From: Comamonadaceae bacterium
GTDB taxonomy: Bacteria; Pseudomonadota; Gammaproteobacteria; Burkholderiales; Burkholderiaceae_C
Reading direction: 5' to 3'
NCBI GenBank assembly: GCA_012274225.1
Contig: JAAOZX010000211.1
Span: forward strand, 1 to 44,193
DNA length: 44,193 nt
The stretch's first letter is position 1; each line of letters starts with the position of its first letter. The notes under the pieces are model-generated. The model worked only from the letters and a program-made list of their open reading frames with translations, had not been told where the DNA came from and searched no databases. The translations under genes and the position numbers were made by a program. This document shows positions 28,015 to 43,949 of the stretch, piece after piece.

Positions 28015-31000
28015 TTAGAGTTGCGCCGCCAGCAGGACGGCGGCATGGACGGCCTCGCGCTGGGCTCCGTCCTGGATCTGATGGCGGCAGCTGGTGCCGT
28101 CGGCTACCACGATCGCGCCGGGATACTTGCGCACCGCGGGCAGCAGGGTCAGCTCGGCCATCTGCATCGACACGTCGTAATGGTCGGCGTCGTACCCAAA
28201 GCTGCCGGCCATGCCGCAGCAACTGCCCTCGATCACCTCGGGCTGCACGCCCGGAATGAGGCGCAGCACCTCGACGATGGGCGGTACGGCCGCGAACGCC
28301 TTCTGGTGGCAGTGGCCGTGCAGCAGCACGCGCTGGTCGAGCGGACGCAGCTTGCCCTTCAGCGCGTCGAGCCGGCCGGCCCTGGCTTCGCGCGCCAGGA
28401 ATTCCTCCAGCAGGAAAGCCTGTTTGGCCACAGCCTGGGCGTCGGCGCCGAGACCCATGGACAGCATTTCGTCGCGCAGCGTGAGCAGGCAGGACGGCTC
28501 GAGCCCGACGATGGGGATCTCCTTCCGCGCGAACGGCGACAGCGACTCGATCACCTCGCCGGCCTTGGCCCTGGCTTCGTCCACCATGCCGCTGGTCAGA
28601 TAGGTCCGGCCGCAGCACAGGTGCTTGCCGTCCGGGCGCAACTTGGTGGCCACGTGGACCGTATAGCCGGCGGCCTGCAGCACCTTGAGGGCCGCCCGTG
28701 CGTTGAGCGACTCGAAATAGCCGTTGAAGGTGTCGACGAACAGCACCACCGGTCGCGCCGCCGCGAGTGCTTCCTCACGGGTGGCGGTCACCGGCGCGTG
28801 GCCGAAGAAGGGTCGGGCTTCCCATACCGGCAGCCGGCGGCGCGCCGACAGCCCAAGCATTCTTTCGCCGAGCCGCGCCATCCAGGCACTGCCATTGCGC
28901 AGGTTGAGCAGCGGTGCGATCCGGCTCGCCTGCGCGGCGTAGTCCGGCAGGCGGGCGATCAGCTTGTCCTTCCAGGTGAAGCCGTAGCGCAGCTTGTAAT
29001 GGTGGAGGAACTCGATCTTCATCTTCGCCATGTCGACGCCGGTGGGGCAGTCGCGCTTGCAGCCCTTGCAGCTGACGCAAAGGTCCAGGGCGTCCTTGAC
29101 CGCTTCCAGCGCGCCGTCATCCCAGGTGCCAGGCAGCACGTTGTCGACCCCGGTGGTCGTGCTGGCGGCGAACGCCGAAGGGTGGAAATCGACCGGCACA
29201 ATGCCCTTGCCGGCGGCCGGGGCCGGGCGTGGCACCATGCCCAATTGCCCCGACAGCGCAAGGCGCAGCGTGTTCGCGCGGCCGCGCGTGGAGTGCTTTT
29301 CCTCGCGCGTGACCCGGTAGCTCGGGCACATGGTGGCGGCGTCGAACTTGCGGCAGTGCCCGTTGTTGTTGCACATGTCCACGGCCTTGGCCAAACCCGC
29401 CGCCGGGTCGCCGCCGGAGCCGGGCGGCGTGATGCGCTCGGTGGCAGCGTCGTTCTGCACGTCCCAGCCGCTCCAGTCCAGCGCGGTCTGCAGCGGGATC
29501 ACCTTGTAGCCGGTCGAATAGCGCATCAGCCGGGTGTCGTCCATGCGCGGCGGGTTGACGATGCGCCTGGGGCAAAGCAGCCGCTGCGGGTCGAACAAGT
29601 CCTTGATCCGGGCAAACGCCTCGTTGATTTTCGGGCCGAACTGCCAGGCGACCCATTCGCCGCGCGACAGGCCGTCCCCGTGCTCTCCGCTGTAGGCGCC
29701 CTTGAAGCGCGCCACCAGGGCGGAGGCCTCCTCGGCGATGGCCCGCATCTTGGTCGCCCCCTGGCTGCGCATGTCCAGTATGGGCCGCACGTGCAACGTG
29801 CCGACCGACGCGTGGGCATACCAGGTGCCGCGGGTGCCGTGCTTGCGGAAGACCTGGCTGAGCGCGTCGGTGTACTCGGCCAGGTGCTCCAGCGGAACGG
29901 CGCAGTCCTCGATGAAACTCACCGGCTTGCCGTCGCCCTTGAGGCTCATCATGATGTTCAGGCCGGCCTTGCGCACTTCCCAGAGGTTCTTCTGCGGCGC
30001 GTCGTCGGTCATGCGCACCACCGATCCGGGCAGGCCGAGGTCGCCCATCAGTTCGACCAGCTCGTCGAGCTTGCGCACCAGCGCGGCCTTGTCGCTTCCG
30101 GAGAATTCCACCAGCAGCACGGCGTCGGGCTGGCCGATCACCGCGGTGCGGATGACCGGAGCAAAGGCGGGGTTCTGCAGCGACAACTCGATCATCGTGC
30201 GGTCGACCAGTTCGACCGCGGTCAGCGTCGCGCCGCCACCCCCCTGCGCCAGCTTGACGATGTGCTGGGCGCAGTCCATCGCCTTGTAAAAGGTCGGGAA
30301 ATTGACCACCCCCAGCACCTTCGCTGCCGGCAGTTCGGCCAGTTGCAGGGTCAGCGAGCGGGTCAACGCCAGCGTGCCTTCGCTGCCGACCAGAAGATGC
30401 GCGAGGTTCACCGATCCGTCGGACGTGTAGGGCCGCGGGTTCTGGTTGTGGAAGACGTCCAGGTTGTAACCGCCCACGCGCCGCAGCACCTTGGGCCAGC
30501 GGTGATCGATTTCCGGCGCCAGTGCGGCGGCCAGCGCCTGCACCTGCAGCCCCAGTTCGCGCGCGCCGCCTTCGGCTTGATCGAAGCGGCCGAAGCGGTG
30601 CAGGCGGCCGTCCGCGGTCCAGGCCTGCATGCCCAGCACGTTGTGCACCATGTTGCCGTAGGCGATGCTTCGGCTGCCGCAGGAGTTGTTGCCCGCCATG
30701 CCGCCGAGCGTCGCCTGCGCGCTCGTGGACACGTCGACCGGATACCACAGGCCCAATTTCTTGAGCGCCGAGTTCAGGTGGTCCAGCACCATGCCGGGCT
30801 CGACCTCGGCGATCCGCCGCTGCGCGTCGAAATGCAGGATGTTGCGCACGTGGCGCGAATGATCGATCACCAGCCCCGCTCCGACCGTCTGGCCGCACTG
30901 GCTGGTGCCCGCGCCGCGCGCGACGATCGGCACTTTCAGGTCGCGGCAGATGTCCAGGGCCAGCGGCACATCGTCGCAGCCGTGCGGAACGAACACGCCG

Positions 31001-31200
31001 ACCGGCATTACCTGGTAGATCGACGCGTCGGTGGCGTAGCGGCCCCGGTCGGCCGCGGAGAACAGCACGTCGCCCTGGGTCTCGGCAACCAGGCGCCTGG
31101 CCAACAGCCCGGCGACTTCATTGCCGCCCCGGGCCACCGCCTCATAAGCGCCCGAGCCGGGCAGGGTGCGGGTCACCTTCAACGGCAAGGGCGCGTTCAT
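28015..31200 (-). CDS. FAD-linked oxidase plus Fe-S/CCG-domain oxidoreductase (D-2-hydroxyacid dehydrogenase-like)
   Basis: YATDASIY, RGAGTSQCGQ, GGMAGNNSCG, GSEGTL, SGEHGDG; Fe-S motifs CNNNGHC...CP and CVSCKGCKRDCP; two CCG motifs; ATGA overlap with gntR. Confidence 0.92.
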   Translation of the reverse strand: MNAPLPLKVTRTLPGSGAYEAVARGGNEVAGLLARRLVAETQGDVLFSAADRGRYATDASIYQVMPVGVFVPHGCDDVPLALDICRDLKVPIVARGAGTSQCGQTVGAGLVIDHSRHVRNILHFDAQRRIAEVEPGMVLDHLNSALKKLGLWYPVDVSTSAQATLGGMAGNNSCGSRSIAYGNMVHNVLGMQAWTADGRLHRFGRFDQAEGGARELGLQVQALAAALAPEIDHRWPKVLRRVGGYNLDVFHNQNPRPYTSDGSVNLAHLLVGSEGTLALTRSLTLQLAELPAAKVLGVVNFPTFYKAMDCAQHIVKLAQGGGGATLTAVELVDRTMIELSLQNPAFAPVIRTAVIGQPDAVLLVEFSGSDKAALVRKLDELVELMGDLGLPGSVVRMTDDAPQKNLWEVRKAGLNIMMSLKGDGKPVSFIEDCAVPLEHLAEYTDALSQVFRKHGTRGTWYAHASVGTLHVRPILDMRSQGATKMRAIAEEASALVARFKGAYSGEHGDGLSRGEWVAWQFGPKINEAFARIKDLFDPQRLLCPRRIVNPPRMDDTRLMRYSTGYKVIPLQTALDWSGWDVQNDAATERITPPGSGGDPAAGLAKAVDMCNNNGHCRKFDAATMCPSYRVTREEKHSTRGRANTLRLALSGQLGMVPRPAPAAGKGIVPVDFHPSAFAASTTTGVDNVLPGTWDDGALEAVKDALDLCVSCKGCKRDCPTGVDMAKMKIEFLHHYKLRYGFTWKDKLIARLPDYAAQASRIAPLLNLRNGSAWMARLGERMLGLSARRRLPVWEARPFFGHAPVTATREEALAAARPVVLFVDTFNGYFESLNARAALKVLQAAGYTVHVATKLRPDGKHLCCGRTYLTSGMVDEARAKAGEVIESLSPFARKEIPIVGLEPSCLLTLRDEMLSMGLGADAQAVAKQAFLLEEFLAREARAGRLDALKGKLRPLDQRVLLHGHCHQKAFAAVPPIVEVLRLIPGVQPEVIEGSCCGMAGSFGYDADHYDVSMQMAELTLLPAVRKYPGAIVVADGTSCRHQIQDGAQREAVHAAVLLAAQL

Positions 31201-31892
31201 TCGGCGGCTCCGGAAGCGGCGTGCTGCGCATCTCGGTGCAATTGCTGCAGCACCACGTCCAGCTTGCGATGCAGGTGGCTGAGCAGGACTTCGCGCATCG
31301 CCGCAGCGTCGCGCGATGCCAGGGCAGCGATCATTTGCTCGTGCTCCTTGGCCGCGTGATCCCACTTCTCGCCGTCCTGGTTGGAGCGGAACCGCAGCGC
31401 CTGCAACCGGGCATTGACCTGGTTGTAGGTGGCCGACAGCACCGGGTTCTTGGCCGCCGCGTTGATGGCGCTGTGGATCAGCGCGTTGATGCGGTAGTAG
31501 TTGGACAAGTCGCGCCGCGTGAAAGCCGCCATCATCTCGAACTGCATCGCCCGGATCTCGGCCAGCTCCGCGTCGGTGATGCGCTGGGCGGCCAGTTCGC
31601 CCGACAGGGCCTCCAGCCCGGCCATCACCTCGAAGGTGTTGCGCACATCAGTCTCGGTCAGCGCAATGGCAATGGCCCCCCGGTTGGGCAGCAATTCGAC
31701 CAGTCCTTCGGCGGCGAGCATCTTGATGGCTTCGCGCAGCGGCGTTCGCGACACCTGCAGCACTTCCGCCAGCTCGCGTTCGTTGAGCTTGGCGCCGGGT
31801 GCGATTCGCCCCTCTACCAGCATCTGGCGCAGGCGCTGGGCGACCTGCTCATGCAGTGCGGCGCGACGGATGGAAATGATGTCGGCGGTCAT
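31197..31892 (-). CDS. GntR-family (FCD domain) regulator
   Basis: PGAKLNERELAEVLQVSRTPLREA wHTH; FCD His residues (IH, EH, SH). Confidence 0.95.
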   Translation of the reverse strand: MTADIISIRRAALHEQVAQRLRQMLVEGRIAPGAKLNERELAEVLQVSRTPLREAIKMLAAEGLVELLPNRGAIAIALTETDVRNTFEVMAGLEALSGELAAQRITDAELAEIRAMQFEMMAAFTRRDLSNYYRINALIHSAINAAAKNPVLSATYNQVNARLQALRFRSNQDGEKWDHAAKEHEQMIAALASRDAAAMREVLLSHLHRKLDVVLQQLHRDAQHAASGAAE

Positions 31893-31901
31893 GGTGGGCT
31901 A

Positions 31902-31979
31902 TTTTGTATGCATAAAACCGGACTGTAAAGCCAACGCATTGGTGCTGTCGCCATTGACATTTGAATTTTGCATGCAAAA
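31902..31979. promoter_or_regulatory. paired palindromic operators in the divergent gntR/aminotransferase promoter
   Basis: perfect 14-bp palindrome TTTTGCATGCAAAA (31966-31979); 12/14 copy TTTTGTATGCATAA (31902-31915); TTGACA at 31954. Confidence 0.7.
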
Positions 31980-32012
31980 ATCCGAGCCTAAGCTTTTGCA
32001 AAGGACCCAGCG

Positions 32013-33248
32013 ATGTTGACGCTCGACTTCCACCCCACCGGCCGTCATTTCCTGCAGATCCCCGGACCGTCCCCGGTGCCCGATCGCATTCTGCGCGCAA
32101 TGAGCCTGCCCACCATCGATCACCGTGGGCCCGAATTCGGCGCACTGGGGCTGAAGGTGCTCAAGGGCATTGGCCAGATCTTCCAGACCCGGCATCCGGT
32201 GGTGATCTATCCGGCCTCCGGCACCGGCGCCTGGGAAGCGGCACTGGCCAACGTGCTGAGCCCGGGCGACGCCGTGCTGATGTACGAGACCGGCCATTTC
32301 GCCAGCCTGTGGAGCAAGATGGCCAGCCGGCTGGGGCTCAAGCCCGAATTCCTGGGCCTGCCGGGCATCGAGGGCTGGCGCCGCGGCGTGCAGGCCGACA
32401 TGATCGAGGAGCGGCTGAAGGCCGACACGCAACACACCATCAAGGCCGTGTGCGTGGTGCACAACGAGACCTCCACGGGCGTGACCAGCAACATCCCGGC
32501 GGTGCGCAAGGCCATCGATGCCGCGCGCCATCCGGCGCTGCTGATGGTCGACAGCATCTCGGGCCTGGCCTGCGCCGAGTACCGCCACGACGACTGGGGC
32601 GTGGACGTCACCATCAGCGGCTCGCAGAAAGGCCTGATGCTGCCGCCGGGCATCAGCTTCAACGCGCTATCGCCCAAAGCCATCGAAGCCAGCAAGAGCG
32701 CGCGGCTGCCCAAGTCGTTCTGGGCCTGGGACGAGATGGTCGAGATGAACAAGACCGGCTATTTCCCGTACACCCCCAACACCAATCTGTTGTACGGACT
32801 TTCCGAAGCCTGCGACATGCTGATGGCGCCCGAGCACGGCGGCCTGCCGGCGGTGTTCGCGCGCCACGAGCGCTGGGGGCAGGGCGTGCGCGCGGCCGTG
32901 AAAGCCTGGGGTCTGGAGATCCAGTGCGTCGACCCGACGGTCTATTCCCCGGTGCTCACCGGCGTGATGACGCCGGCCGGTGTCGACGCGGACGCCGTGC
33001 GCAAGATCATCTACGACCGCTTCGATTGCTCGCTGGGCACGGGCCTGGGCAAGGTCAAGGGCAAAATGTTCCGCATCGGCCATCTGGGCGACAGCAACGA
33101 CCTGACGCTGGTGGCGACCCTGGCCGGATGCGAGATGGGACTGAAGCTCGCCGGCGTCAAGCTGGCGGCCTCCGGCGTGCAGGCCGCCATGAACTATTTC
33201 TCGGAACACGCCTGCAGCGTCAACGCCACCGGGACGCGGGCGGCGTAA
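32013..33248 (+). CDS. class V PLP aminotransferase (serine/alanine-glyoxylate type)
   Basis: HFLQIPGP, IDHRG, SGTGAWE, VHNETSTG, PLP lysine SGSQKG, FPYTP, FRIGHLG. Confidence 0.93.
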   Translation: MLTLDFHPTGRHFLQIPGPSPVPDRILRAMSLPTIDHRGPEFGALGLKVLKGIGQIFQTRHPVVIYPASGTGAWEAALANVLSPGDAVLMYETGHFASLWSKMASRLGLKPEFLGLPGIEGWRRGVQADMIEERLKADTQHTIKAVCVVHNETSTGVTSNIPAVRKAIDAARHPALLMVDSISGLACAEYRHDDWGVDVTISGSQKGLMLPPGISFNALSPKAIEASKSARLPKSFWAWDEMVEMNKTGYFPYTPNTNLLYGLSEACDMLMAPEHGGLPAVFARHERWGQGVRAAVKAWGLEIQCVDPTVYSPVLTGVMTPAGVDADAVRKIIYDRFDCSLGTGLGKVKGKMFRIGHLGDSNDLTLVATLAGCEMGLKLAGVKLAASGVQAAMNYFSEHACSVNATGTRAA

Positions 33249-33301
33249 AGGCTATCCTGTGGTGATTTGCGGCTTCTCTTCAACTACCTGAGGTGACAAC
33301 G

Positions 33302-34327
33302 ATGAAAAATCCGATCTCGAAATTCCTGGGCAAGGCCTCCCTGTTGCCGCTTTCGCTGGCAGCGTTGGCGGCGATCGCGACCTTGCCCGCGCAAGCGGCA
33401 TGGGAGCCGACCAAGCCGGTGGAGGTGGTGGTGCCGGCCGGCGCCGGCGGCGCTTCCGACCAGATGGCCCGCACCATCCAGGGGATCGTCGTCAAGCACC
33501 AGCTGATGAAGCAGCCCATGCTGATCCTGAACATGGGCGGCGCCAGCGGCGCGGAAGGCCAGATGGACGTCAAGGGTGCGAAAGGCAACCCGCACAAATT
33601 GATGGTGGCGTTCTCCGCCATCTACACGCTGCCCATCGCGGTGAACCTGCCGTTCAACTGGCGCGACCTCAATCCGGTGGCGATGATCGCGCTGGATGAA
33701 TTCGTGCTGTGGGACAACGCCGAGGCACCGTCCAAGACGACCAAGGAATTCCTGGCGGCCGTCAAGGCGGCGCCTCCCGGAACCTTCAAGATGGGTGGCA
33801 CCGGCATCAAGCGCGAGGACCACATCATCACCGTGGCGATCGAAAAGGCCGCCGGCGTGAAGTTCTCCTACATCCCCTACAAGAGCGGCGGCGAAGCGGC
33901 GACCCAGCTGGTGGGCAAGCACATCGATTCGAACGTCAACAATCCGAGCGAGAACATCGCCCAGTGGCGCGCCGGCCAGGTGCGGGCCCTGTGCGTGTTT
34001 TCCGACCATCGCATGGCGTTCAAGGAAAAGATCACCACCGACCAGTCGTGGGCGGACATCCCCACCTGCAAGGAGTCAGGCCTGGACGTCCAGTACCAGA
34101 TGTTGCGTGCCTTCTTCCTGCCGCCCGACACCACCAAGGAGCAGGCCGCGTTCTACGTCGACCTGCTGAAGAAGGTGACAGCGACGCCGGAATGGAAGGA
34201 GTACCTGAGCAAGCAGGCATTGAAGGAATCGTTCCTGACCGGCACCGATTTCACCAAGTTCCTGGAAAAGGACGAGGCCTTCCACACCAAGCTGATGAAC
34301 GAGGCCGGGTTCGCCGCCAAGAAGTAA
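33302..34327 (+). CDS. tripartite tricarboxylate transporter substrate-binding protein (TctC/Bug)
   Basis: signal peptide ending AQA, WEPTKPVEVVVPAGAGGASD, IPYKSGGE, DIPT. Confidence 0.92.
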   Translation: MKNPISKFLGKASLLPLSLAALAAIATLPAQAAWEPTKPVEVVVPAGAGGASDQMARTIQGIVVKHQLMKQPMLILNMGGASGAEGQMDVKGAKGNPHKLMVAFSAIYTLPIAVNLPFNWRDLNPVAMIALDEFVLWDNAEAPSKTTKEFLAAVKAAPPGTFKMGGTGIKREDHIITVAIEKAAGVKFSYIPYKSGGEAATQLVGKHIDSNVNNPSENIAQWRAGQVRALCVFSDHRMAFKEKITTDQSWADIPTCKESGLDVQYQMLRAFFLPPDTTKEQAAFYVDLLKKVTATPEWKEYLSKQALKESFLTGTDFTKFLEKDEAFHTKLMNEAGFAAKK

Positions 34328-34354
34328 TTGCGGCTCGCCGCAGCGGAGACAGAC

Positions 34355-34867
34355 ATGGACAGCAAGAAGATGCGAAACCCGCTTGCCCGCGGGCTTTCGC
34401 ACAGCAACGTGGAGGCGATCGCGGCGGTCGCCATCTTCCTCATCGGCGTGGTGATGATGGTCGACAACTACAAGGTTGGCGCCGGCTGGGCAACCGATGG
34501 GCCGCAGTCGGGGTACTTCCCGTTCCGGGTGGGCGCCATCATCTGCATCTCGGCCGTCGTGGTCTTCATCAAGGCGCTGTTCGGCAAGAACCGTCGGAAC
34601 GAGGTCTTCGTTTCGTGGGAACGATTCCGCCTGGTGCTGATGGTCCTGGTGCCCACCATCGTCTACGTGCTGGCCACGCAGTTCGTCGGCATCTATGTCG
34701 CCTCCACGATCTTCATCGCCGCCTTCATGCGGGTGATGGACAAGCGCGCCTGGTGGAAGGTGGCGCTGATCAGCGTCGGGACGAGCGTCACGCTGTTCTG
34801 GCTGTTCGAGATCCAGTTCATGGTGCCGCTGCCGAAGGGGCCGCTCGAAGCCCTGCTCGGTTACTGA
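34355..34867 (+). CDS. TctB-family small membrane subunit
   Basis: four TM segments, GPQSGYFP, LFEIQFMVPLPKGP. Confidence 0.88.
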   Translation: MDSKKMRNPLARGLSHSNVEAIAAVAIFLIGVVMMVDNYKVGAGWATDGPQSGYFPFRVGAIICISAVVVFIKALFGKNRRNEVFVSWERFRLVLMVLVPTIVYVLATQFVGIYVASTIFIAAFMRVMDKRAWWKVALISVGTSVTLFWLFEIQFMVPLPKGPLEALLGY

Positions 34868-34890
34868 TAACAGGAACGGAGACGCGGTCC

Positions 34891-36414
34891 ATGGAAAATC
34901 TCGAAGCCCTGTTTCACGGGTTCGCCGTCGCGATGACCTGGTACAACGGTCTGATGATGCTGATCGGCCTGGTGCTGGGCATCGTCATCGGTGTGCTGCC
35001 GGGCCTGGGCGGGCCGAACGGCGTGGCCATCCTGCTGCCGCTGACGTTCACGATGCCGCCCACCTCGGCGATCATCATGCTGTCGTGTATCTACTGGGGG
35101 TCGCTCTTCGCCGGCGCCATCACCTCGATCCTGTTCAACATTCCGGGCGAGACCTCGGCGGTGGCGACCACCTTCGACGGCTATCCGCTGGCCCAGCAGG
35201 GCAGGGCGGGGGAGGCGCTCACGGCCTCGTTCACCGGATCGTTCATCGGCGCCTTCGTGGGTGTGCTGCTGATCACCTTCCTGGCGCCCCTGGTGTCGAG
35301 CTTCGCGCTCAAGTTCGGGCCGCCCGAGTTCTTTGCCGTCTTTCTGCTGACGTTCTGCAGTTTCGTCGGCGCCGATACCAAGACCCCTTTCAAGACCATC
35401 ATCTCCATGATGCTCGGCTTCGGTTTGGCCGCCATCGGCATGGACACCGTCAGCGGCGAACTGCGCATGACCTTCGGCCTGTCGGAACTGCTGCGCGGCG
35501 TCGATTTCCTGGTGGTCGTGATCGGGCTGTTCGGCCTGGGCGAGATTCTGGTCACCATGGAAGAGGGTCTTGCGTTCGAAGGCAAGCACGCCAAGATCAA
35601 CGCCAAGGTGGTCTGGCAAACCTGGAAACGGCTGCCCAAGTACTGGCTGACGCTGATCCGCAGCTCCGTCGTCGGTTGCTGGATGGGCATCACGCCCGGC
35701 GGTGCCACCGCCGCCTCGTTCATGGGTTACGGCATCGCGAAGCGCTTTTCTCCCGACAGCGACAAATTCGGCAGCGGCCAGATCGAAGGCGTTATCGCGC
35801 CGGAGACCGCCGCGCACGCCGCCGGGACCGCGGCCTTGCTGCCGATGCTGGCGCTGGGCATTCCCGGCTCGGCCACCGCGGCGGTGCTGCTGGGCGGGTT
35901 GATGATCTGGGGCCTGCAGCCCGGGCCGCTGCTGTTTGTCGAACAGAAGGACTTCGTCTGGGGCCTGATCGCCAGCATGTACCTGGGCAATCTGGCGGGC
36001 CTGTTCATCGTCCTGAGCACCGTGCCGCTGTTCGCGGCGATCCTGCGTATCCCGTTCTCGATCATCGCCCCGATCATCATCGTGGTCTGCGCCATCGGCG
36101 CCTATGCGGTGCATGGCGCCATGCTCGACGTCTGGTTCATGGTCTTGTTCGGCATCGCCGGTTACATCCTCAAGAAGCTCGAGTATCCGCTGGCGCCACT
36201 GGTGCTGGCGGTGGTGCTGGGCGACAAGATGGAGTCCGCCTTTCGCCAATCGATGATCGGCCCCACCGGCGGACTGGCCATCTTCTGGTCGAACCCGCTG
36301 GTCGGCACGATCACGACGCTGGCACTGCTCTTGCTGTTCTGGCCGGCGCTGGTCTTTGTCTGGCGCAGGCTGATCGGCATTCTGGGCGGCGGCCCGGTCA
36401 AGGCGCCGCGATGA
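34891..36414 (+). CDS. TctA-family large permease
   Basis: GVLPGLG, SILFNIPGE, TTFDGYP, FGPPEFF, APETA, LGIPGS, GLQPGP motifs. Confidence 0.95.
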   Translation: MENLEALFHGFAVAMTWYNGLMMLIGLVLGIVIGVLPGLGGPNGVAILLPLTFTMPPTSAIIMLSCIYWGSLFAGAITSILFNIPGETSAVATTFDGYPLAQQGRAGEALTASFTGSFIGAFVGVLLITFLAPLVSSFALKFGPPEFFAVFLLTFCSFVGADTKTPFKTIISMMLGFGLAAIGMDTVSGELRMTFGLSELLRGVDFLVVVIGLFGLGEILVTMEEGLAFEGKHAKINAKVVWQTWKRLPKYWLTLIRSSVVGCWMGITPGGATAASFMGYGIAKRFSPDSDKFGSGQIEGVIAPETAAHAAGTAALLPMLALGIPGSATAAVLLGGLMIWGLQPGPLLFVEQKDFVWGLIASMYLGNLAGLFIVLSTVPLFAAILRIPFSIIAPIIIVVCAIGAYAVHGAMLDVWFMVLFGIAGYILKKLEYPLAPLVLAVVLGDKMESAFRQSMIGPTGGLAIFWSNPLVGTITTLALLLLFWPALVFVWRRLIGILGGGPVKAPR

Positions 36415-37196
36415 TGAGTGCGAACACCGGAACAGTCCGGCTCGCGATAGACGGTGCAATCGCATCGGTGGTGTTCGACCGGCCCGCGGCGCGCAACGCG
36501 ATGACCTGGACCATGTACCAGGAGCTGGGCGCCATCTGCGACCGGATCCATGGCGAGCCGTCGGTGCGCGTGGTGTCGTTGCGTGGCGCCGGTGGCGAAG
36601 CCTTCGTGGCCGGCACCGACATCGAGCAGTTCAAGGCGTTCCGCGACGGCCAGGCCGGCGTGGACTATGAGCGCAGCATCGACGAGGCCATGGCCCGGCT
36701 GGAAGGCCTGCCGGTGGCCACGGTGGCGGTGATCGAGGGCTGGTGCGTGGGCGGCGGCCTGGCCATCGCCACCGCGTGCGACGTCCGCATCGCCACGCCG
36801 TCGGCACGGATGGGCGTGCCGATCGCCAGGACGCTCGGCAATTGCCTGTCGATGGGCAGCATCGCCCGGCTGGTGGCCGCGTTCGGCCGCCCTCGTGTGC
36901 AGCGGATGTTGATCGCGGCCGAGATTCTCAACGCCGGTGAGGCCTTGGGTTGCGGTTACCTGACCGAGGTGGTGGCCGCCGACGCGATCGATGCCACCGC
37001 TGCCAGCCTGTGCCAGCGCCTGGCGACGCTGGCCCCGGTGACCCAGGCGGTGAGCAAGGAGGGCCTGCGCCGCTTGCTGCTGAACAATTTGCCCGATGCG
37101 CAGGACCTGATCATGCGCACCTACGGCAGCGAGGATTTCCGCGAAGGCGTACAAGCCTTCAGCGAAAAGCGGCCACCGGTCTGGCGCGGCCGGTAA
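36411..37196 (+). CDS. crotonase-superfamily (enoyl-CoA hydratase/isomerase-like) protein
   Basis: RPAARNA, FVAGTDI, CVGGG, SEDFREG..AF.EKR.PVW; ATGA overlap with tctA. Confidence 0.9.
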   Translation: MMSANTGTVRLAIDGAIASVVFDRPAARNAMTWTMYQELGAICDRIHGEPSVRVVSLRGAGGEAFVAGTDIEQFKAFRDGQAGVDYERSIDEAMARLEGLPVATVAVIEGWCVGGGLAIATACDVRIATPSARMGVPIARTLGNCLSMGSIARLVAAFGRPRVQRMLIAAEILNAGEALGCGYLTEVVAADAIDATAASLCQRLATLAPVTQAVSKEGLRRLLLNNLPDAQDLIMRTYGSEDFREGVQAFSEKRPPVWRGR

Positions 37197-37352
37197 TTCC
37201 ACGCGCCGGGCAAGCGAGAGCCGCGACCGGCGAGCCCACCGTTATGGCGTGCAGGTCGATGTAACAACCCGTACTGGTCCTACAGACACGGAGGCAATGG
37301 CGATGAAGTATTCACTATCCGCCTCTTCTTCGTGTCACAGGGTCCGAACGTC

Positions 37353-39014
37353 ATGCGCCTGCCCGCGGGATTTCCTCACTTGCTTTGCCTGTTGGCGGCT
37401 TGCCTGTCGCCGCAGCTCGCGTTGGCGGAAAAGCAGACCGTGTGCACCATCACAGTCAATTCCCCCGACGAACAGGAATCGTTCCGCCGCTTCCTGCCCG
37501 CTTCGAAGTACCAGTTTGTCGAACTCGTCGAGCGCCACCGCCCCGATTGGCTGGCCTCGGCCTGCCAGCAGCGCGTCTCCTGCGATGTGCTCGTGATTTC
37601 CGGTCACTACGGCGCCGGCAACGAGTTCTTTTCGGATGCACTGGAGGCGCGCGAATTCCTGCCCATCGCCGAACTCGAACGCGTGTCCTGCTCGGATTCC
37701 TGTCCGAGCCTGTTTTCCAGGCTGAAGGAGGTCTATCTCTTCGGCTGCAACACGTTGAATCCGCAGGCGCAACACAGCGCCTCGGCGGAGATCGCACGCA
37801 GTCTCGTGCGCGATGGGCGTTCGCCGGTGGAGGCCGGGCGGCTCGCGCGATTGTTGAGTGCGGGGCACGGCGAAAGCAGCCGCGACCGGATGCGGATGGT
37901 GTTCAAGGACGTTCCGGTGATCTACGGCTTTTCAGCGGCAGCGCCGTTGGGCCCGACGGCCGCCTCCACGCTCAACCGCTATTTCCAGGCTACCGGCGCG
38001 AAAGACGTGGGCACCGGCCGCGCCAGCAGCCGACTGCTGTCGAGCTTCGCGCCCAACGGGATGACGGTGGCCCAGGGCATGACCGACGCGGATCCGCACG
38101 CCGCCGTGCGGCAGGACATGTGCCGGTTTGCCGATGACCGGTTGTCGAACGTGGAAAAACTGCGCTTCGTCCATGAGCTACTGCAAAGACCGACGGCGGA
38201 AGCCAGGATGTTTCTCGACCGCATCGAAAGATACACGGCGGGGCTCGACGCGAGCGAGCGGCAGGCGCCGGAGGTGGCGCAGGAGCTCGATGCCATCGGG
38301 CACGACGCTGGCGCCCGCGGACGCTATCTCGCTTTCGCGCGCGACGCCGATCAACCCGCGGTACGGGCACGCATGCTGAATCTCGCGCACGACCTGGGCT
38401 GGTTGTCGGCCGACCAACGGCGCGATGAGCTGGTGCGGATGATGAGCGACTTGCTGGCCCACGACGAGATCGCCGGCACCGAGGTGGACCTGGCATGCAC
38501 GCTCAACAAGGAGCACGACCTCGATGGCGTGCAGGGCCAGTTCGCCTCAGCGGCGGGCGGGGTCGATGACGTGGGGCACGCCGCCGTTCGCGCCTGCATG
38601 GGCAGCGCCGAGGGCCATGTGCGCACGCTGCAGGGGCTGGTCAGCCCGTCCGACGCCGATGTCCGGATCGCCCAGACCTATCTTCATCACCGGCCGATCA
38701 CCGACGTCGGCGAACTGCGAGCAGTCATCGCGGCCATCGTCCGCATGAACGGGTCCGAGGCGCAAGTGCGCGCGCTGGATGCACTGGCACAGCACTATCT
38801 GTCCGATCGCGAAAGCCTGGACATGCTGGCGACGCTTTTTTCGCAGACGCCATCATGGCCCGTCCAGAACGCGATTGCGGGCATACTGATTCGCTCGGAC
38901 GTCCGGTCGATCGACAGCCAGGAGCTTCTGCTCACGCTGCGCGAGCGCCGCCACAAGCCCCCCTCGGGTGACAACATGGTCGACGCTCTGATCAGTCGGC
39001 TGCAACTGCCCTGA
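37353..39014 (+). CDS. exported hypothetical protein, paralogue A, caspase/CHAT-like His-Cys domain plus helical C-terminus
   Basis: long ORF, signal peptide, full-length similarity to 39118-40791; DVLVISGHYG and LKEVYLFGCNT motifs; function inferred. Confidence 0.8.
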   Translation: MRLPAGFPHLLCLLAACLSPQLALAEKQTVCTITVNSPDEQESFRRFLPASKYQFVELVERHRPDWLASACQQRVSCDVLVISGHYGAGNEFFSDALEAREFLPIAELERVSCSDSCPSLFSRLKEVYLFGCNTLNPQAQHSASAEIARSLVRDGRSPVEAGRLARLLSAGHGESSRDRMRMVFKDVPVIYGFSAAAPLGPTAASTLNRYFQATGAKDVGTGRASSRLLSSFAPNGMTVAQGMTDADPHAAVRQDMCRFADDRLSNVEKLRFVHELLQRPTAEARMFLDRIERYTAGLDASERQAPEVAQELDAIGHDAGARGRYLAFARDADQPAVRARMLNLAHDLGWLSADQRRDELVRMMSDLLAHDEIAGTEVDLACTLNKEHDLDGVQGQFASAAGGVDDVGHAAVRACMGSAEGHVRTLQGLVSPSDADVRIAQTYLHHRPITDVGELRAVIAAIVRMNGSEAQVRALDALAQHYLSDRESLDMLATLFSQTPSWPVQNAIAGILIRSDVRSIDSQELLLTLRERRHKPPSGDNMVDALISRLQLP

Positions 39015-39117
39015 GCACCCGGGCGAGTCCGGGGCGAACTTGCACCGGGTTACATATCGCTGTGAAGCGCCGAGCTGTGCAATACTGGCTGCCCAGCCGC
39101 GTCGAGTTGTCCTGCCC

Positions 39118-40791
39118 ATGCCCCTCCTGTCCCTGTCCGCCTTCAGCAGACTGGCCGTCCTCGCCGCGTGCGTCGCCGCGGCGTGCCCGTTCGATGCGAG
39201 CGCCGCTCCGAAGACGGTGTGCACGATCACGGTGAACTCGCCGGACGAAAAGGAGACCTTCCAGCGGAATCTGCCGCCTGGCGAATACCGGTTCGTCGAG
39301 CTGGTGGAGCGCGGCCGGCCGGACTGGCTGGCCTCCGCCTGTCAGCAGCGCGTTTCCTGCGACGCGCTCATCATTTCCGGCCACTTCGACGGCGGCACCG
39401 AGTTCTATACCGATCGCCTCGACGCCAGCGAGTACCTGTCAGTGGAGGAGATGGAGCGCGCTTCGTGCAGCGACTCCTGTCCCGGCGTGTTTTCGCAGCT
39501 CAAGGAAGTCTATCTGTTCGGCTGCAACACCTTGAAACCGGAGCCCCAGCACAGTGCGTCGGCGGAGATCGAGCGCAGCCTCCTGCGCTCGGGCCACTCT
39601 GCGTCGGACGCCGTACGGCTATCGGGCCTTTTGAGCGAGCGGCACGGCGAAAGCAATCGCGACCGTATGCGGCACATCTTCAGGAACGTGCCGGTACTCT
39701 ACGGTTTTTCGTCGAAGGCGCCGCTTGGCCGCTCCGCGGCGCCGCTGCTGGATCGCTATTTTCAATCGGCCCCACCGGGCGAGGTCGGGGGCGGCCGCGT
39801 GAGCGCGAGGCTGCTAGGCCTTTTCGCCCCAAGCTCAATGACCGTCGCGGCCGGCCTGACCGACGCGGATCCGCAGGCGGACTTCCGCAGCGACGTCTGC
39901 CACTTCGTGGACGATCGACTCTCGGATGCACAGAAGGTCGGCTTCATGCACGAGCTGCTGCAGCGCGATATGGCCGAAGTGCGCATGTATCTCGAGCATC
40001 TCGAGAGCTACTCGGCCTCGATTGGACCGGCGCAGCGGCTTGCACCGGAGACGGCCGCAGCGCTCGCCGCGATCGCGGGCGACAGCGCCGCGCGCGAACG
40101 CTATCTCACCTTTGCGCGCGACGCCGACCAGCCGGCGGTCCGCACCCGAATGATGGCGCTGGCGCGCAGCCTTGGATGGCTGTCGCCCGCGCAGGAGCGT
40201 GCGGAATTCATGCGGATGATCGCGGATCAGATGGCGCGCGATCGCCTGGGCAGGGATGAGGTGGAGCTGGCTTGCACCCGCGACCAGGGCCCCGAGCCGG
40301 GCCTCGCACTGCAAGGGTTGGGCGCGGCCGCAGCACAGTCGGGCAACGTGGCGCAGGCCGCCGTGCTGGCCTGTCTCGGAAGCGCCGAGGCGCACGCGCG
40401 CGTCGTTCATGCACTCACGAGCGCCAACGCAGACGATGTCGCGATCGCACAGGTCTACCTGCGCCGGCGGCCACTGGCCGACGTCGGCGAACTGCGCGCC
40501 GTCACATCGGCTATCGCACGCATGCCCGCATCCGACGCCCAGGTGCGGGCCCTGAACACGCTGGCTCAGCAACGCCTGGCCGACCCGGAGAGCCTGCGGG
40601 AAATCACCCGCCTCTTCCCGCTGGCCCGGTCGGTCGATGTGCAGCGCGCGATCGCCGGCATTCTGATCCGGTCCGACTATCGCGTGCTGGGGCGGTCCGA
40701 CCTGGCACGTTCGCTGCGGCAGCACCGCCTCAAGTCGCCGGACGGCAACGACGTGATCGACGCGCTGATTCGCGTGCTCCAGGCTAGCTAG
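39118..40791 (+). CDS. exported hypothetical protein, paralogue B, caspase/CHAT-like His-Cys domain plus helical C-terminus
   Basis: signal peptide ending ASA; DALIISGHFDG and LKEVYLFGCNT motifs; colinear with paralogue A. Confidence 0.8.
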   Translation: MPLLSLSAFSRLAVLAACVAAACPFDASAAPKTVCTITVNSPDEKETFQRNLPPGEYRFVELVERGRPDWLASACQQRVSCDALIISGHFDGGTEFYTDRLDASEYLSVEEMERASCSDSCPGVFSQLKEVYLFGCNTLKPEPQHSASAEIERSLLRSGHSASDAVRLSGLLSERHGESNRDRMRHIFRNVPVLYGFSSKAPLGRSAAPLLDRYFQSAPPGEVGGGRVSARLLGLFAPSSMTVAAGLTDADPQADFRSDVCHFVDDRLSDAQKVGFMHELLQRDMAEVRMYLEHLESYSASIGPAQRLAPETAAALAAIAGDSAARERYLTFARDADQPAVRTRMMALARSLGWLSPAQERAEFMRMIADQMARDRLGRDEVELACTRDQGPEPGLALQGLGAAAAQSGNVAQAAVLACLGSAEAHARVVHALTSANADDVAIAQVYLRRRPLADVGELRAVTSAIARMPASDAQVRALNTLAQQRLADPESLREITRLFPLARSVDVQRAIAGILIRSDYRVLGRSDLARSLRQHRLKSPDGNDVIDALIRVLQAS

Positions 40792-40909: not shown

Positions 40910-41263
40910 CTACTTCGACGCGTCGACTGGCGACAGGTAAAGGTCAAAGGAAGTATTCCGCGCCAGGGTCAGGGTATAGCCCCTTCGCACGTTCCCGTGA
41001 CGCGCCGTGACTTGATAAGTGCCGGGCGGCAGGGGCAAGTCAATCAAGGAAGTCGCGTCATCGAGCGACAGCATTCTGTTGCCGCCCATATCCTCGACGA
41101 AAACCTGGATCGGCTCGCGATCCTTCCGGAGCGAATGCTTCAGGCCCATCGCACGGCAGGCCAACGCCAGGATCGACCGGATTGTCCCCACGGCGTCCCC
41201 TGTGTGGATGAGGAGGCGGGCCGAGGCGATTGCCGCAACTCTGCCATCCTGGCACGAGCTCAT
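40910..41263 (-). CDS. hypothetical protein with carboxypeptidase-regulatory/transthyretin-like C-terminal beta domain
   Basis: LPLPPGTYQVTARHG motif; AGGAG SD upstream. Confidence 0.6.
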   Translation of the reverse strand: MSSCQDGRVAAIASARLLIHTGDAVGTIRSILALACRAMGLKHSLRKDREPIQVFVEDMGGNRMLSLDDATSLIDLPLPPGTYQVTARHGNVRRGYTLTLARNTSFDLYLSPVDASK

Positions 41264-41280: not shown

Positions 41281-41733
41281 TCAGCCGTCGACCAGTGTCA
41301 GGTTGTCAGCGCTTTCCAGTTTCGGTTGACGCCTTTTGCTGCGTTCCAGCAGGAGCGCCACCAGCAGTGCGCCTGCGGCGGACGCCGCCAGCTGCGGCGA
41401 GTTCGACAGCATTTGTGCCAGTCCATCGACCGCTTCCACGCTGACCTGTTGCGCATGCTCTACCAGTGCCACGACATCGCTTGCGTGAACGCCTGAGAGC
41501 TCCTCGAGCTGAATGTGCATCTGGCTCCAGCCGCTGCGAAACCGGATGCTCGCAAACACCCCGTGGGCTACGGCAACCAGCGACAGCACCCCCAATGGCC
41601 GAAGCAACTGCTCCAGGATGTGGCGGCGTTCCGTTGGTGGCGCAATCTCATAGACCTGGGCCACCAGTTCGGGGATGGCCGCTGGCTGCGGCGGGGTGAG
41701 GCGTTCGTCTTGCGGGGGTAAAGCTGAGGTCAT
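41281..41733 (-). CDS. hypothetical protein (helical, C-terminal hydrophobic segment)
   Basis: ORF with protein-like composition, AAGGA SD, 17 nt upstream of the next co-oriented gene. Confidence 0.6.
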   Translation of the reverse strand: MTSALPPQDERLTPPQPAAIPELVAQVYEIAPPTERRHILEQLLRPLGVLSLVAVAHGVFASIRFRSGWSQMHIQLEELSGVHASDVVALVEHAQQVSVEAVDGLAQMLSNSPQLAASAAGALLVALLLERSKRRQPKLESADNLTLVDG

Positions 41734-41870
41734 GGATCCGGTTCCTTCCGTTGAGGCGCACCGCACGATGCGAGCCAGGATCTTCAATCGCGAAACGGTG
41801 CTGCCGTGTGTCGGCAGCAGCGCGAAGCGTTGCATCTGAAATGGAGCAGCACGCCGGCGCGTCGGCGCGG

Positions 41871-43949
41871 TCAGCGCAAGAGTTCTGCCAGCGCTCGCGC
41901 GAGCTCGGTTCGTTGCAGAGGTTTGCTGAGCAGTCGCGTAACGCCGGCTTCCGCTGCGCGAGACGCCAGCTGGGCGCCCCCGTAACCCGTCACCAGGAGG
42001 ACGGGAAGATCCGGCCGGGTGGCCCGCAATTCGCGGGTCAGCTGGGTACCGGTCAAGACGGGCATAACCTCATCCGTGATGACGGCGGCGTAACGGTTCC
42101 CGTTCCCGCGCAAGGCTTGCAGGGCCGCGACCGGGTCGGCATACCCCTCGGGGTCGTAGCCCAGCCCCTTGAGCATCTCCGTGGCCATGGCCACCAGGGC
42201 CGGATCGTCGTCCACCACCAGCACGGGCTGGCCGGCCCCACGTGGCGCCGTCTTGGTCATGGGCACTGCCGGGCCGACGGGATCGTTGCACTCGGGAAGG
42301 TAGAGCGTGAAGCAGGCACCCCGTCCGGGTGCACCCTGGACATCGATCGCCCCGCTGAATTCGGCTACCACGCCATGGACGACGGCAAGGCCGAGCCCGG
42401 TGCCCGACTGCTCGCCACGCGTGGTGAAGAAGGGCTCGAAGAGGCGTTCCATGACCTCCGGCGTCATGCCGGTGCCTTCGTCCTGCACCGCCAGCTCGAG
42501 GTAATCTCCCGCCTCCAGGCGGCTGTGCGACAGCACTCGCGGCGCCGCGACATGCACCCGCGCCATCCGCACGCTCAACCGGCCTGCGCCCGGCATGGCC
42601 TGCATCGCGTTGGTGCAAAGATTCATGACCGCTTCGAAAACCTGGGCAGGGTCACCGCGCAGCCGGGCGCCCGGGGCGTCGAGCGCCCGCTCCAGCACAA
42701 CGCCGCTTCGCAGGGACACGCTGATCAGGGCAAGGACTTCCTCGACGATCGGTTCCAGCTCGAAAACGAGGGACACCCGCGCGCCGCCTCGGCTGAAGGC
42801 CATGATGCGCTCGATGAGGGTCCTGCCGCGTACCGCCGCCTGGAGCACCTTGCCGATCTGACGCTCCTGGGCGCTGCCCTTGGCTGCAGAGTCTTGCGCC
42901 ATTTCGCCAAAGCCGACGATCGCCGCGAGCACATTGTTGAAGTCATGTGCGACGCCACCCGCAAGCGTGCCCAGCGCTTCCAGTTTGCTGGCGCGTGAGA
43001 GCTGCGATTGCAGCGCCCTCTGGGCCTGGTCGCGGTGACGGTCGGCACGGCGCACCTGCAAAGCCGAGCCGGCCAGAACCGCCAGCAGCAACGCGATCCC
43101 CGCCGTGGTCAGCTGTGCGGTCTGGCGCCAGCCGGACAGGGCAGCGTCCAGATTGCGCGTCAGAATCACCTTCAAGCCAAAACGCTGAACCTCGCGAATC
43201 TCAATGAGGCGCTGCTTCCCATCGCGGAACCGCCCCAGCTCCTGGGGCTGGCCGCTCGCCGGCGGTTCGGCCAGGCGTGCCGCATCGGCGTTCGGCAACT
43301 TGCCGGCAGCGCCGGCCAGGCGCACGCCGTCGCTGCGGAACACCGCCATGCGGGCATCGGACGCCGGCGTGGCCACGGAAAACGCGCCCAAAAGAGCATT
43401 GGCCGGTATGGCGGCGAAAATCCATCCGCCCCCGGTTCCGACAGACGGGTCGGAAAGCCGCATGGCCACCGCAATGAAGGTCGCGTGGCTTTGCCCGTCG
43501 CTGAAGGGACTGCTGATGGCGATCGAGTCATCACCAAGCCGGCCGAGGGCCGGCAGGAACGACGCAGCCGTCGGCGCGGGGCTCTTGTCCGACGCCGACA
43601 GGACACGATATCCGGAATCAACCAGCCAAAGCTTGTCCACCAGCGGCATCAAATAGGCACGGGTTTGCAGGGCGCGCGTGGCCTGCGCGCCGCTCACCGG
43701 CAAACGGTCTTCCTGCAACTCGATCTTCATGGCCTGCAGGCCTTCTTGCGCATCCTGCAAACCACGGTCGATTTCATCGGTCAACGCAATCGAAAGCAGG
43801 GTGAGCTCGCGCTGTTGCGCTGCCATCGCCGAGTTCCGCAGGTGCCACAATGCGGCCACGGCGACCAGGACCAATGCGATCACCGGCGCAATCACCAGCG
43901 TCCATCGCCCCGCCGTGCCGACCGTCCGCTCGTTCATGTCCAGGTTCAC
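41871..43949 (-). CDS. membrane hybrid sensor histidine kinase (Cache-like sensor, HisKA, HATPase, receiver; VirA-like layout)
   Basis: two TM helices; H-box AHDFNN, N-box NLCTNA, DEGTGM, FEPFFTT, GTGLGL; receiver VVDDD...TD...SKP. Confidence 0.93.
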   Translation of the reverse strand: MNLDMNERTVGTAGRWTLVIAPVIALVLVAVAALWHLRNSAMAAQQRELTLLSIALTDEIDRGLQDAQEGLQAMKIELQEDRLPVSGAQATRALQTRAYLMPLVDKLWLVDSGYRVLSASDKSPAPTAASFLPALGRLGDDSIAISSPFSDGQSHATFIAVAMRLSDPSVGTGGGWIFAAIPANALLGAFSVATPASDARMAVFRSDGVRLAGAAGKLPNADAARLAEPPASGQPQELGRFRDGKQRLIEIREVQRFGLKVILTRNLDAALSGWRQTAQLTTAGIALLLAVLAGSALQVRRADRHRDQAQRALQSQLSRASKLEALGTLAGGVAHDFNNVLAAIVGFGEMAQDSAAKGSAQERQIGKVLQAAVRGRTLIERIMAFSRGGARVSLVFELEPIVEEVLALISVSLRSGVVLERALDAPGARLRGDPAQVFEAVMNLCTNAMQAMPGAGRLSVRMARVHVAAPRVLSHSRLEAGDYLELAVQDEGTGMTPEVMERLFEPFFTTRGEQSGTGLGLAVVHGVVAEFSGAIDVQGAPGRGACFTLYLPECNDPVGPAVPMTKTAPRGAGQPVLVVDDDPALVAMATEMLKGLGYDPEGYADPVAALQALRGNGNRYAAVITDEVMPVLTGTQLTRELRATRPDLPVLLVTGYGGAQLASRAAEAGVTRLLSKPLQRTELARALAELLR

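Follow-up and report, generated by a model that had tools for sequence, protein, structure and literature searches.

The window analysed here, positions 1 to 44,193 of contig JAAOZX010000211.1 in assembly GCA_012274225.1 of a soil or freshwater Comamonadaceae bacterium, carries two adjacent genes, termed A and B, whose products are read, with guarded confidence, as an interdependent and regulated pair of exported cysteine endopeptidases from a clan CD family that existing profile models do not cover. Gene A (37353..39014, forward strand) encodes 553 residues from an ATG at 37353, and gene B (39118..40791, forward strand) encodes 557 residues from an ATG at 39118; both reading frames are open, and the two proteins align over 532 residues at 58% identity with no gaps. 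A preliminary description of the window, made from its letters, had presented them as two colinear, exported-type paralogues of about 555 residues, each with a His codon (37605 and 39382) followed 47 residues later by a Cys codon (37746 and 39523) and each with nine Cys at equivalent positions in the mature chain, and all of this was confirmed. The reality of the family is far beyond chance: 3282 proteins reached E <= 0.001 among 7997 scored candidates, and a scan of 1.84 billion representatives yielded 859 clusters at 50% identity, which fall into two tiers.

The genes are separated by a spacer of 103 nt (39015..39117) in which no consensus terminator or promoter was found, terminator hits being at chance level. 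Their GC content at third codon positions is 0.82-0.83, and their codon-position GC is like that of the neighbouring genes. The source genome (82% complete) holds these two copies only, and the closest named relative is a Ramlibacter metagenome-assembled genome (MAG; 94% identity for A, 92% for B). Around the start of A, a strong GGAGG ribosome-binding motif (37290-37305, forward strand) lies ahead of an ATG at 37303 that is in a frame other than A's and opens a 97-codon open reading frame (ORF) overlapping the start of A; A's own ATG has no clear ribosome-binding motif.

Judged from its predicted structure, A almost certainly has the clan CD caspase-type fold. The AlphaFold2 model of residues 26-266, built from a 113-row alignment (B was not folded alone), has a predicted local distance difference test score (pLDDT) of 92.9 and a predicted template modelling score of 0.88, and it shows a central parallel beta-sheet with flanking helices in caspase topology; the domain itself spans approximately residues 26-245 (37428..38087, forward strand). 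In Foldseek, the top rows were caspase-3 and SAVED-CHAT (E 5e-4 to 1e-3), and four of the five matches at E <= 0.001 were caspase or SAVED-CHAT structures, the fifth being the response regulator RcsB. A VIA fold search over 48,161 chains returned a caspase-fold protein in every row from rank 1 to 16, headed by SAVED-CHAT (PDB 8tl0; Z 10.7, root-mean-square deviation (rmsd) 3.5, 165 residues aligned) and followed by legumain (rank 2, Z 9.7), C11 (9.6), the OaAEP1 ligase (rank 4, 9.5) and GPI transamidase (rank 5, 9.0); further rows included caspases, Tce1 (Z 8.2), MALT1, metacaspases and DdvA (Z 8.0), and unrelated flavodoxin-like folds started at Z 6.8. SAVED-CHAT thus stands about one Z unit above legumain and C11, with the other CHAT-type rows lower (8.0-6.0), and over the domain and full-length models its match ranged over Z 10.7-11.3, rmsd 3.3-3.5 and 162-165 aligned residues. 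The best matches are therefore clan CD peptidases and not another fold, as the preliminary description had anticipated in proposing a caspase/CHAT-like fold.

The predicted catalytic residues stand where this fold would place them. His85 of A (37605..37607, forward strand) closes the SGH motif at the end of strand 3, directly after strand 54-58 of the model, and Cys132 (37746..37748, forward strand), the predicted nucleophile, closes the LFGC motif at the end of strand 4, directly after strand 101-105; the accessible text of PMC4357240 gives this layout for clan CD, with His closing strand 3 and Cys closing strand 4. Of 767 hits, 490 homologues cover the domain (an effective number of about 200); every one of these has Cys132, and 488 have His85. 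The corresponding residues of B, His89 (39382..39384, forward strand) and Cys136 (39523..39525, forward strand), are invariant in the family alignment. In a profile alignment to 26 CHAT domains, a set chosen by its small-residue pattern and illustrating the usual motif only, His falls on His and Cys on Cys, although the match is weak (E 0.037). The strand positions and this register bear out the proposed caspase-type dyad, and its invariance among homologues, put forward as a check, is borne out as well; A and B are very probably catalytically active, to judge from model and conservation.

The residues around the dyad depart from the better-known subfamilies. In the portion of PMC4357240 that deals with caspase-7, Gly145, directly after His, binds the P1 residue, and Gln184, two residues before Cys, is an S1 residue. 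In the A/B family, the position after His is Phe in 254, Tyr in 202, His in 33 and Thr in 1 of the 490 homologues and is never Gly, so that the caveat raised over Tyr or Phe at this position is justified, and the residue two before Cys is Phe in 460, Tyr in 14, Met in 12, Leu in 3 and Cys in 1. The family accordingly lacks the marks of C14 caspases (a polar residue two before Cys and Gly after His) and that of CHAT (Gly, Ala or Ser after the catalytic His), and has the hydrophobic-Gly sequence ahead of the catalytic Cys that marks C80. Invariant polar residues after strand 1 (N36, S37 and E40) could equally set specificity, and the P1 preference cannot be called from sequence. The source genome also encodes two canonical CHAT-domain proteins (G000:C230:1132-1932 and G000:C482:9002-9760), both with Ala after the catalytic His.

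No established family model recognises either protein. Pfam gave no family at E <= 1 for A or B, including PF12770 and PF00656, NCBIfam and PADLOC gave no real hit for them, no clan CD Pfam family matched any of 38 distant members, and sequence searches of the PDB returned weak helical-repeat rows only. UniRef names the A orthologue of Ramlibacter alkalitolerans 'Caspase domain-containing protein', although that protein has no such Pfam hit. In the ESM Atlas, outside the family's own clusters, only leads below 0.9 were obtained (CHAT 0.78; DUF6345 0.84, the latter unconfirmed, with one member retrieved). A literature search, in which most subscription papers and supplements were not covered, found no description of this family. 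As modelled, A and B show the testable features of clan CD and are not CHAT, C14 or C80 as these are profiled.

The cysteines and the N-terminal regions both point to a place outside the cytoplasm. C71 and C117 are lost together in 25 of the 490 homologues and singly in 3, and are the top covarying pair; covariation of S114 with R253 supports a disulfide between C113 and C257; and of 38 distant members, 5 have lost both C382 and C415. Four disulfides are therefore probable from sequence (C71-C117, C382-C415, C113-C257 and C31-C77), the last because it is the only pair left by elimination, and with eight cysteines so paired Cys132 is the likely free thiol. The proposal of four disulfides and one free Cys accordingly holds up, and the disulfides would indicate an oxidising compartment independently of any signal peptide. 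Sequence heuristics place Sec signal peptides of the signal peptidase I (SPI) type at residues 1-25 of A, ending ALA (37353..37427, forward strand), and at residues 1-29 of B, ending ASA (39118..39204, forward strand). By the same kind of heuristic, 69 of 70 first genes, all 70 second genes and 123 of 137 distant members have a hydrophobic region before the mature start, and an AxA site was seen near the mature start in 44 of 70 first and 57 of 70 second genes. LAAC and an AxA site occur in the signal regions of both A and B, and the preliminary description had seen in the former a possible lipobox. The AxA site and hydrophobic region stand, and the lipobox does not: the LAAC Cys is kept in only 52 of 122 close homologues, and a lipobox pattern occurs in 6 of 70 genes in first position, 10 of 70 in second position and 5 of 137 distant members, so that lipoprotein anchoring through signal peptidase II is not supported. 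A twin-arginine signal on B was rejected, its pattern occurring in 9 of 70 second genes against 8 of 70 first genes. Because lipobox-like patterns are rare, Sec/SPI is the likely export route of both proteins.

Beyond the catalytic domain, the C-terminal half is a predicted helical solenoid. The model of full mature A (pLDDT 91.5) is all helical there and matches ARM/HEAT solenoids, in agreement with the HEAT/ARM-like segments read earlier from the sequence; the solenoid comprises residues 266-551 of A (38148..39005, forward strand), with the probable C382-C415 disulfide, and by ungapped homology 39925..40782 (forward strand) of B. A further element, a helical hairpin inserted after the catalytic Cys (residues 144-172 of A; 37782..37868, forward strand), lies at the site of the caspase inter-subunit linker and is a candidate lid. 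This hairpin of about 30 residues, helical in the models, has been lost on several occasions (a pattern match shows it gone from 9 of 584 sequences), and wherever gene context is available, in three cases, the second gene lacks it and the first keeps it (L201 in G375, L202 in G357 and L008 in G048).

The association of A with B underlies the proposed interdependence. The first tier of the family consists of proteins of about 550 aa, and its 77 fetched GTDB loci are all titled Betaproteobacteria, Burkholderiales or unspecified Pseudomonadota; the second tier, of about 500-1150 aa at 36-47% identity, has named members from Bdellovibrionota (one given as 'Deltaproteobacteria') and HEAT repeats. 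Cultured carriers are Ramlibacter alkalitolerans, R. monticola and Bdellovibrio sp. HCB209. The 77 loci, drawn from the 80 of 746 hits that most resemble A and thereby biased towards it, include 71 with a tandem pair and one more with the start of a second gene at a contig end; of the remaining five, four lie in genomes with further copies, so that 76 of the 77 are in genomes with at least two family genes. Whole-genome searches are free of this bias on pairing. Within the genus, the family is present in 17 of 118 genomes and absent from 101, with an adjacent pair in 16 of the 17 and a fragmented locus in the other (one helical-only hit was dropped). In a sample of the wider taxonomic family, pairs were found in 4 of 250 other genomes, all four full-length positives being paired (in one more genome a contig end truncates the locus, and two hits confined to the helical part were set aside), in a sample of the order in 2 of 300 others (both positives paired), and in a sample of the phylum in 1 of 400, already counted in the other samples. 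All 22 whole genomes that could be judged, from Betaproteobacteria, carry both genes in the order A then B. The A-B locus is thus rare and patchy yet all-or-none, and the pair is nearly obligate in Betaproteobacteria, which answers the earlier question of whether the genes always occur together. Copy number varies in places: a low-GC locus of the distant tier has its own recent tandem duplicate (L127:5959-10747), another locus has three family copies in a row, the first frameshifted (L019:5195-10566), and one genome (G1038, contig C2) holds a tandem pair, a separate gene and a broken copy.

A tree of 203 rows, made by quick search and without broken or truncated genes, groups the 64 second genes without exception into one clade and the 68 first genes, again without exception, into a second (Shimodaira-Hasegawa-like approximate likelihood ratio support of 95 for each), and A and B are, on this tree, old sister clades. 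Orthologues have diverged by about 35-38%, the distances among A and among B proteins are mirrored (r 0.89), and the dyad is intact in both clades. When metagenome pairs were added (FastTree), further lineages appeared with their own split of first and second genes, and starred branches force at least three label changes; pairs appear from this to have arisen more than once or to have been homogenised by conversion. Twenty columns are fixed differently between A and B. Seven of these are found in two windows, the post-His hairpin and the loop that follows strand 5, which together make up 19 of the 231 jointly conserved columns (p 3e-4, for windows chosen post hoc with the data already seen). 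In caspases, the corresponding hairpin and loop bind substrate. A prediction of the A-B complex (first 495 mature residues of each, paired 60-row alignments, no controls folded) scored 0.19 against a mark of 0.32 and counts neither for nor against binding.

Most relatives lack the locus, yet hardly any genome retains just one of the two genes after 35-38% divergence, and from this it is fairly probable that A and B depend on one another; that one directly processes or binds the other is possible but doubtful. In the mechanism we propose, Sec export and oxidative folding into four disulfides would leave Cys132 and Cys136 free as nucleophiles, the hairpin after Cys could act as a lid that holds the enzyme latent, and the solenoid may select a folded substrate. 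A and B would recognise different sequences and one would need the other, most simply through activation in trans or through two successive cuts. No target is encoded beside the pair, so the substrate would be either foreign or a protein of the host's own envelope. A bolder extension, which we consider unlikely, is a periplasmic initiator-effector cascade of caspase-like enzymes in which one paralogue senses a trigger by means of its ARM solenoid and then clips or opens the lid hairpin of its partner, and the partner in turn cuts a protein of the envelope or of an invader; on this view the family, shared with predatory Bdellovibrionota, was repeatedly converted in Betaproteobacteria from a single enzyme into a two-step pair.

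Several observations weigh against an interdependent pair of proteases. With regard to fold and activity, the Foldseek TM-scores of the A domain are only about 0.4, the profile match to CHAT has a probability of 1.4%, Gly never follows the catalytic His, and catalysis is argued from sequence and model with the dyad placed by strand position and not by distance. With regard to pairing, the 77 loci were selected for likeness to A, one fragmented MAG (G1039) has A only, another genome (G1037) has its two genes 10 kb apart, and 35 of 36 low-GC metagenome loci of the distant tier, a good number of them short, have a solitary gene, so that a tandem partner is not essential to the fold's function. 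Any linked genes should give mirrored trees, recurrent origin or homogenisation of pairs is also explicable by dosage or by simple expansion of specificity, and loss of the hairpin is not limited to second genes, as one protein without it (P0289) groups with a first gene.

The most probable of the alternatives is that A and B are active exported proteases of complementary specificity that act independently, for instance in digesting an outside protein, and are kept together by shared regulation and co-transfer. The mostly solitary distant relatives, the recurrence of tandem duplicates in several lineages, the differences between A and B in substrate-binding loops and the retention of the dyad in both genes would all be expected of such enzymes. 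Against this, 101 of the 118 genus genomes lack the locus and yet not one lone complete gene occurs in the 22 judged genomes despite the 35-38% divergence among orthologues, and no peptide-uptake or secretion gene recurs among 139 flanking genes; independent action is on these grounds rather unlikely. It is improbable that A and B are instead transpeptidases or ligases, similar to GPI transamidase or the asparaginyl ligases, that cut a motif and join the protein to an acceptor in the envelope instead of to water: VIA ranks 2, 4 and 5 do go to legumain, the OaAEP1 ligase and the subunit of GPI transamidase, and the aromatic residue after His might shape an acceptor side, but the Z values of these enzymes are tied with that of hydrolytic C11 and near that of SAVED-CHAT, and no gene for a substrate or sorting signal recurs near the pair (77 loci; 139 flanking genes). 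Non-catalytic or rarely active scaffolds that bind or sense a peptide in the cleft between caspase domain and solenoid, after the manner of Raptor or resting DdvA, are equally improbable, for although the domain order is that of inactive, peptide-binding Raptor (accessible text of PMC6325617), Raptor appears weakly in Foldseek (E 0.013), DdvA has an intact dyad and no induced cleavage shown in the part of PMC11506125 available, and Gly is wanting after His, keeping His and an unpaired Cys in two phyla, at 36-47% identity, would carry a cost in an oxidising environment if nothing were catalysed, and neither a membrane anchor nor a sigma/anti-sigma gene or other output partner is found nearby.

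No third partner gene recurs when ORFs of the 77 loci are clustered, nor in a clustering of the 36 low-GC loci. A Pfam scan of the 139 nearest flanking genes (the 127 second-nearest were outside the scan) found no recurring defence, sigma/anti-sigma, immunity, secretion or peptide-uptake partner; these are mixed metabolic, transport and stress genes, with one PIN-domain gene. An anti-phage defence system is not supported, as no defence family recurs among these genes in the Pfam scan and PADLOC, applied to proteins of the window and not to these flanking genes, gave chance-level rows only. No relative was found among IMG/VR viral contigs or PLSDB plasmids, and since the GC content of the genes is also like that of the window, recent mobile cargo is not indicated. 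Directly after B lie two small ORFs, of 117 aa (40910-41263, forward strand) and 184 aa (41281-41835, reverse strand), which have no Pfam, NCBIfam or PADLOC match and do not occur beside the pair in the 77 related loci. They are followed by a hybrid histidine kinase/response regulator (41871-43949, reverse strand), convergent on the pair, whose best model is VirA-like but below the cut-off; a similar kinase adjoins the pair in only one of the 77 loci (L075). Upstream lies a catabolic cluster (28015-37196) with an FAD/4Fe-4S oxidoreductase, a GntR-type regulator, an aminotransferase, a tripartite tricarboxylate transporter and an enoyl-CoA hydratase, judged from translations, the hydratase alone being checked in Pfam. 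In metatranscriptomes from four studies, contigs of relatives match parts of A and B in small shares, and two bridge the spacer; contigs cannot show transcription and were not used as evidence.

The A/B family adds to clan CD a sizeable group (859 clusters at 50% identity) that is unmodelled by Pfam, NCBIfam and PADLOC and of unusual build, an exported, putatively disulfide-locked caspase fold followed by ARM/HEAT repeats and with an aromatic residue after His. The nearly obligate pair of intact paralogues offers a compact, testable case of protease cascades or hetero-oligomers arising by duplication, and the cultured carriers make experimental tests feasible. Activation of B by A would mean that a caspase-like cascade operates in the bacterial envelope; otherwise the family simply joins the secreted clan CD families that lack annotation. 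The periplasmic initiator-effector cascade, should it exist, would amount to a protease switch complete in two genes and acting outside the cytoplasm.

Among known systems, CHAT proteins (PF12770; SAVED-CHAT, craspase TPR-CHAT and separase) include the best structural match to A, SAVED-CHAT, and share with it the His/Cys register and the coupling to a helical repeat domain. They differ in that A is at 12% identity and carries its ARM/HEAT domain C-terminally, where CHAT has an N-terminal TPR or SAVED domain, and in that A and B are predicted to be exported and disulfide-bonded, have an aromatic residue after His, and lack a CRISPR context or that of a cyclic-oligonucleotide-based anti-phage signalling system. 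The model for a cascade is that of Haliangium, in which SAVED-CHAT activates PCaspase, the two clan CD proteases being encoded together as in A and B; in the accessible part of that account (bioRxiv 10.1101/2023.06.23.546230), the cascade is cytoplasmic, triggered by cyclic oligoadenylate, built from two unrelated subfamilies and placed beside CRISPR genes, whereas A and B are paralogues, predicted to be exported, with no sensor or third gene. DdvA, a transmembrane anti-sigma factor with a periplasmic TPR-CHAT domain (PDB 8rot; PMC11506125, accessible text), shares with A and B an extracytoplasmic CHAT-like domain, an intact dyad and helical repeats (Z 8.0), but it is membrane-anchored and tied to an extracytoplasmic function sigma factor, whereas the predicted signal peptides of A and B are of the cleavable type and no sigma/anti-sigma gene recurs beside the pair.

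The secreted clostripain/C11, gingipain C25 and legumain C13 enzymes are, like the predicted A and B, exported cysteine endopeptidases of the same fold (Z 7-9.7), from which A and B differ in having no Pfam match, identities of 6-11%, an ARM/HEAT tail in place of a prodomain or Ig-like domain, and a near-obligate paralogous partner. The C80 enzymes (the cysteine protease domain, CPD, of MARTX, and Tce1/Tce2) have Val138-Gly139-Cys140 in the CPD and a His-Cys spacing of 49-50 (PMC4357240 and PMC13323088, accessible portions), which A and B resemble in the hydrophobic-Gly before Cys (FGC), in spacing (47 here) and in the match to Tce1 (Z 8.2). The CPD, however, has a beta-flap replacing helices 4 and 5, whereas the A model keeps helices 175-189 and 201-206 between strands 5 and 6, and A and B are stand-alone, Sec-type genes with no toxin or secretion neighbour, neither embedded in a toxin nor cargo of a type VI secretion system. 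Raptor, whose caspase-like domain is described in the available text of PMC6325617 as inactive, with TOS peptides bound in a cleft formed with its solenoid, has a caspase-like domain then a solenoid in the same order as A and B; it is eukaryotic, cytoplasmic, inactive and equipped with a WD40 domain, and its whole-chain match to full A is weak and does not show homology (TM 0.17, rmsd 25; absent from the 50 VIA rows of the full A model, in which no listed chain stood out across both domains). The preliminary description had implied that an exported location is unusual for this fold, and it is less so than that, given DdvA, secreted C11, the gingipains and metacaspases with probable signal peptides (a possible signal peptide in 46 of 398 single-domain metacaspases, in the accessible text of PMC3501461). 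Extracytoplasmic clan CD proteins such as DdvA, C11 and the gingipains are thus not new, nor is a cytoplasmic cascade of two such proteases; the new elements are the family itself, its predicted exported architecture, in which a caspase domain precedes an ARM solenoid and an aromatic residue follows the catalytic His, and the nearly obligate pairing of two intact paralogues.

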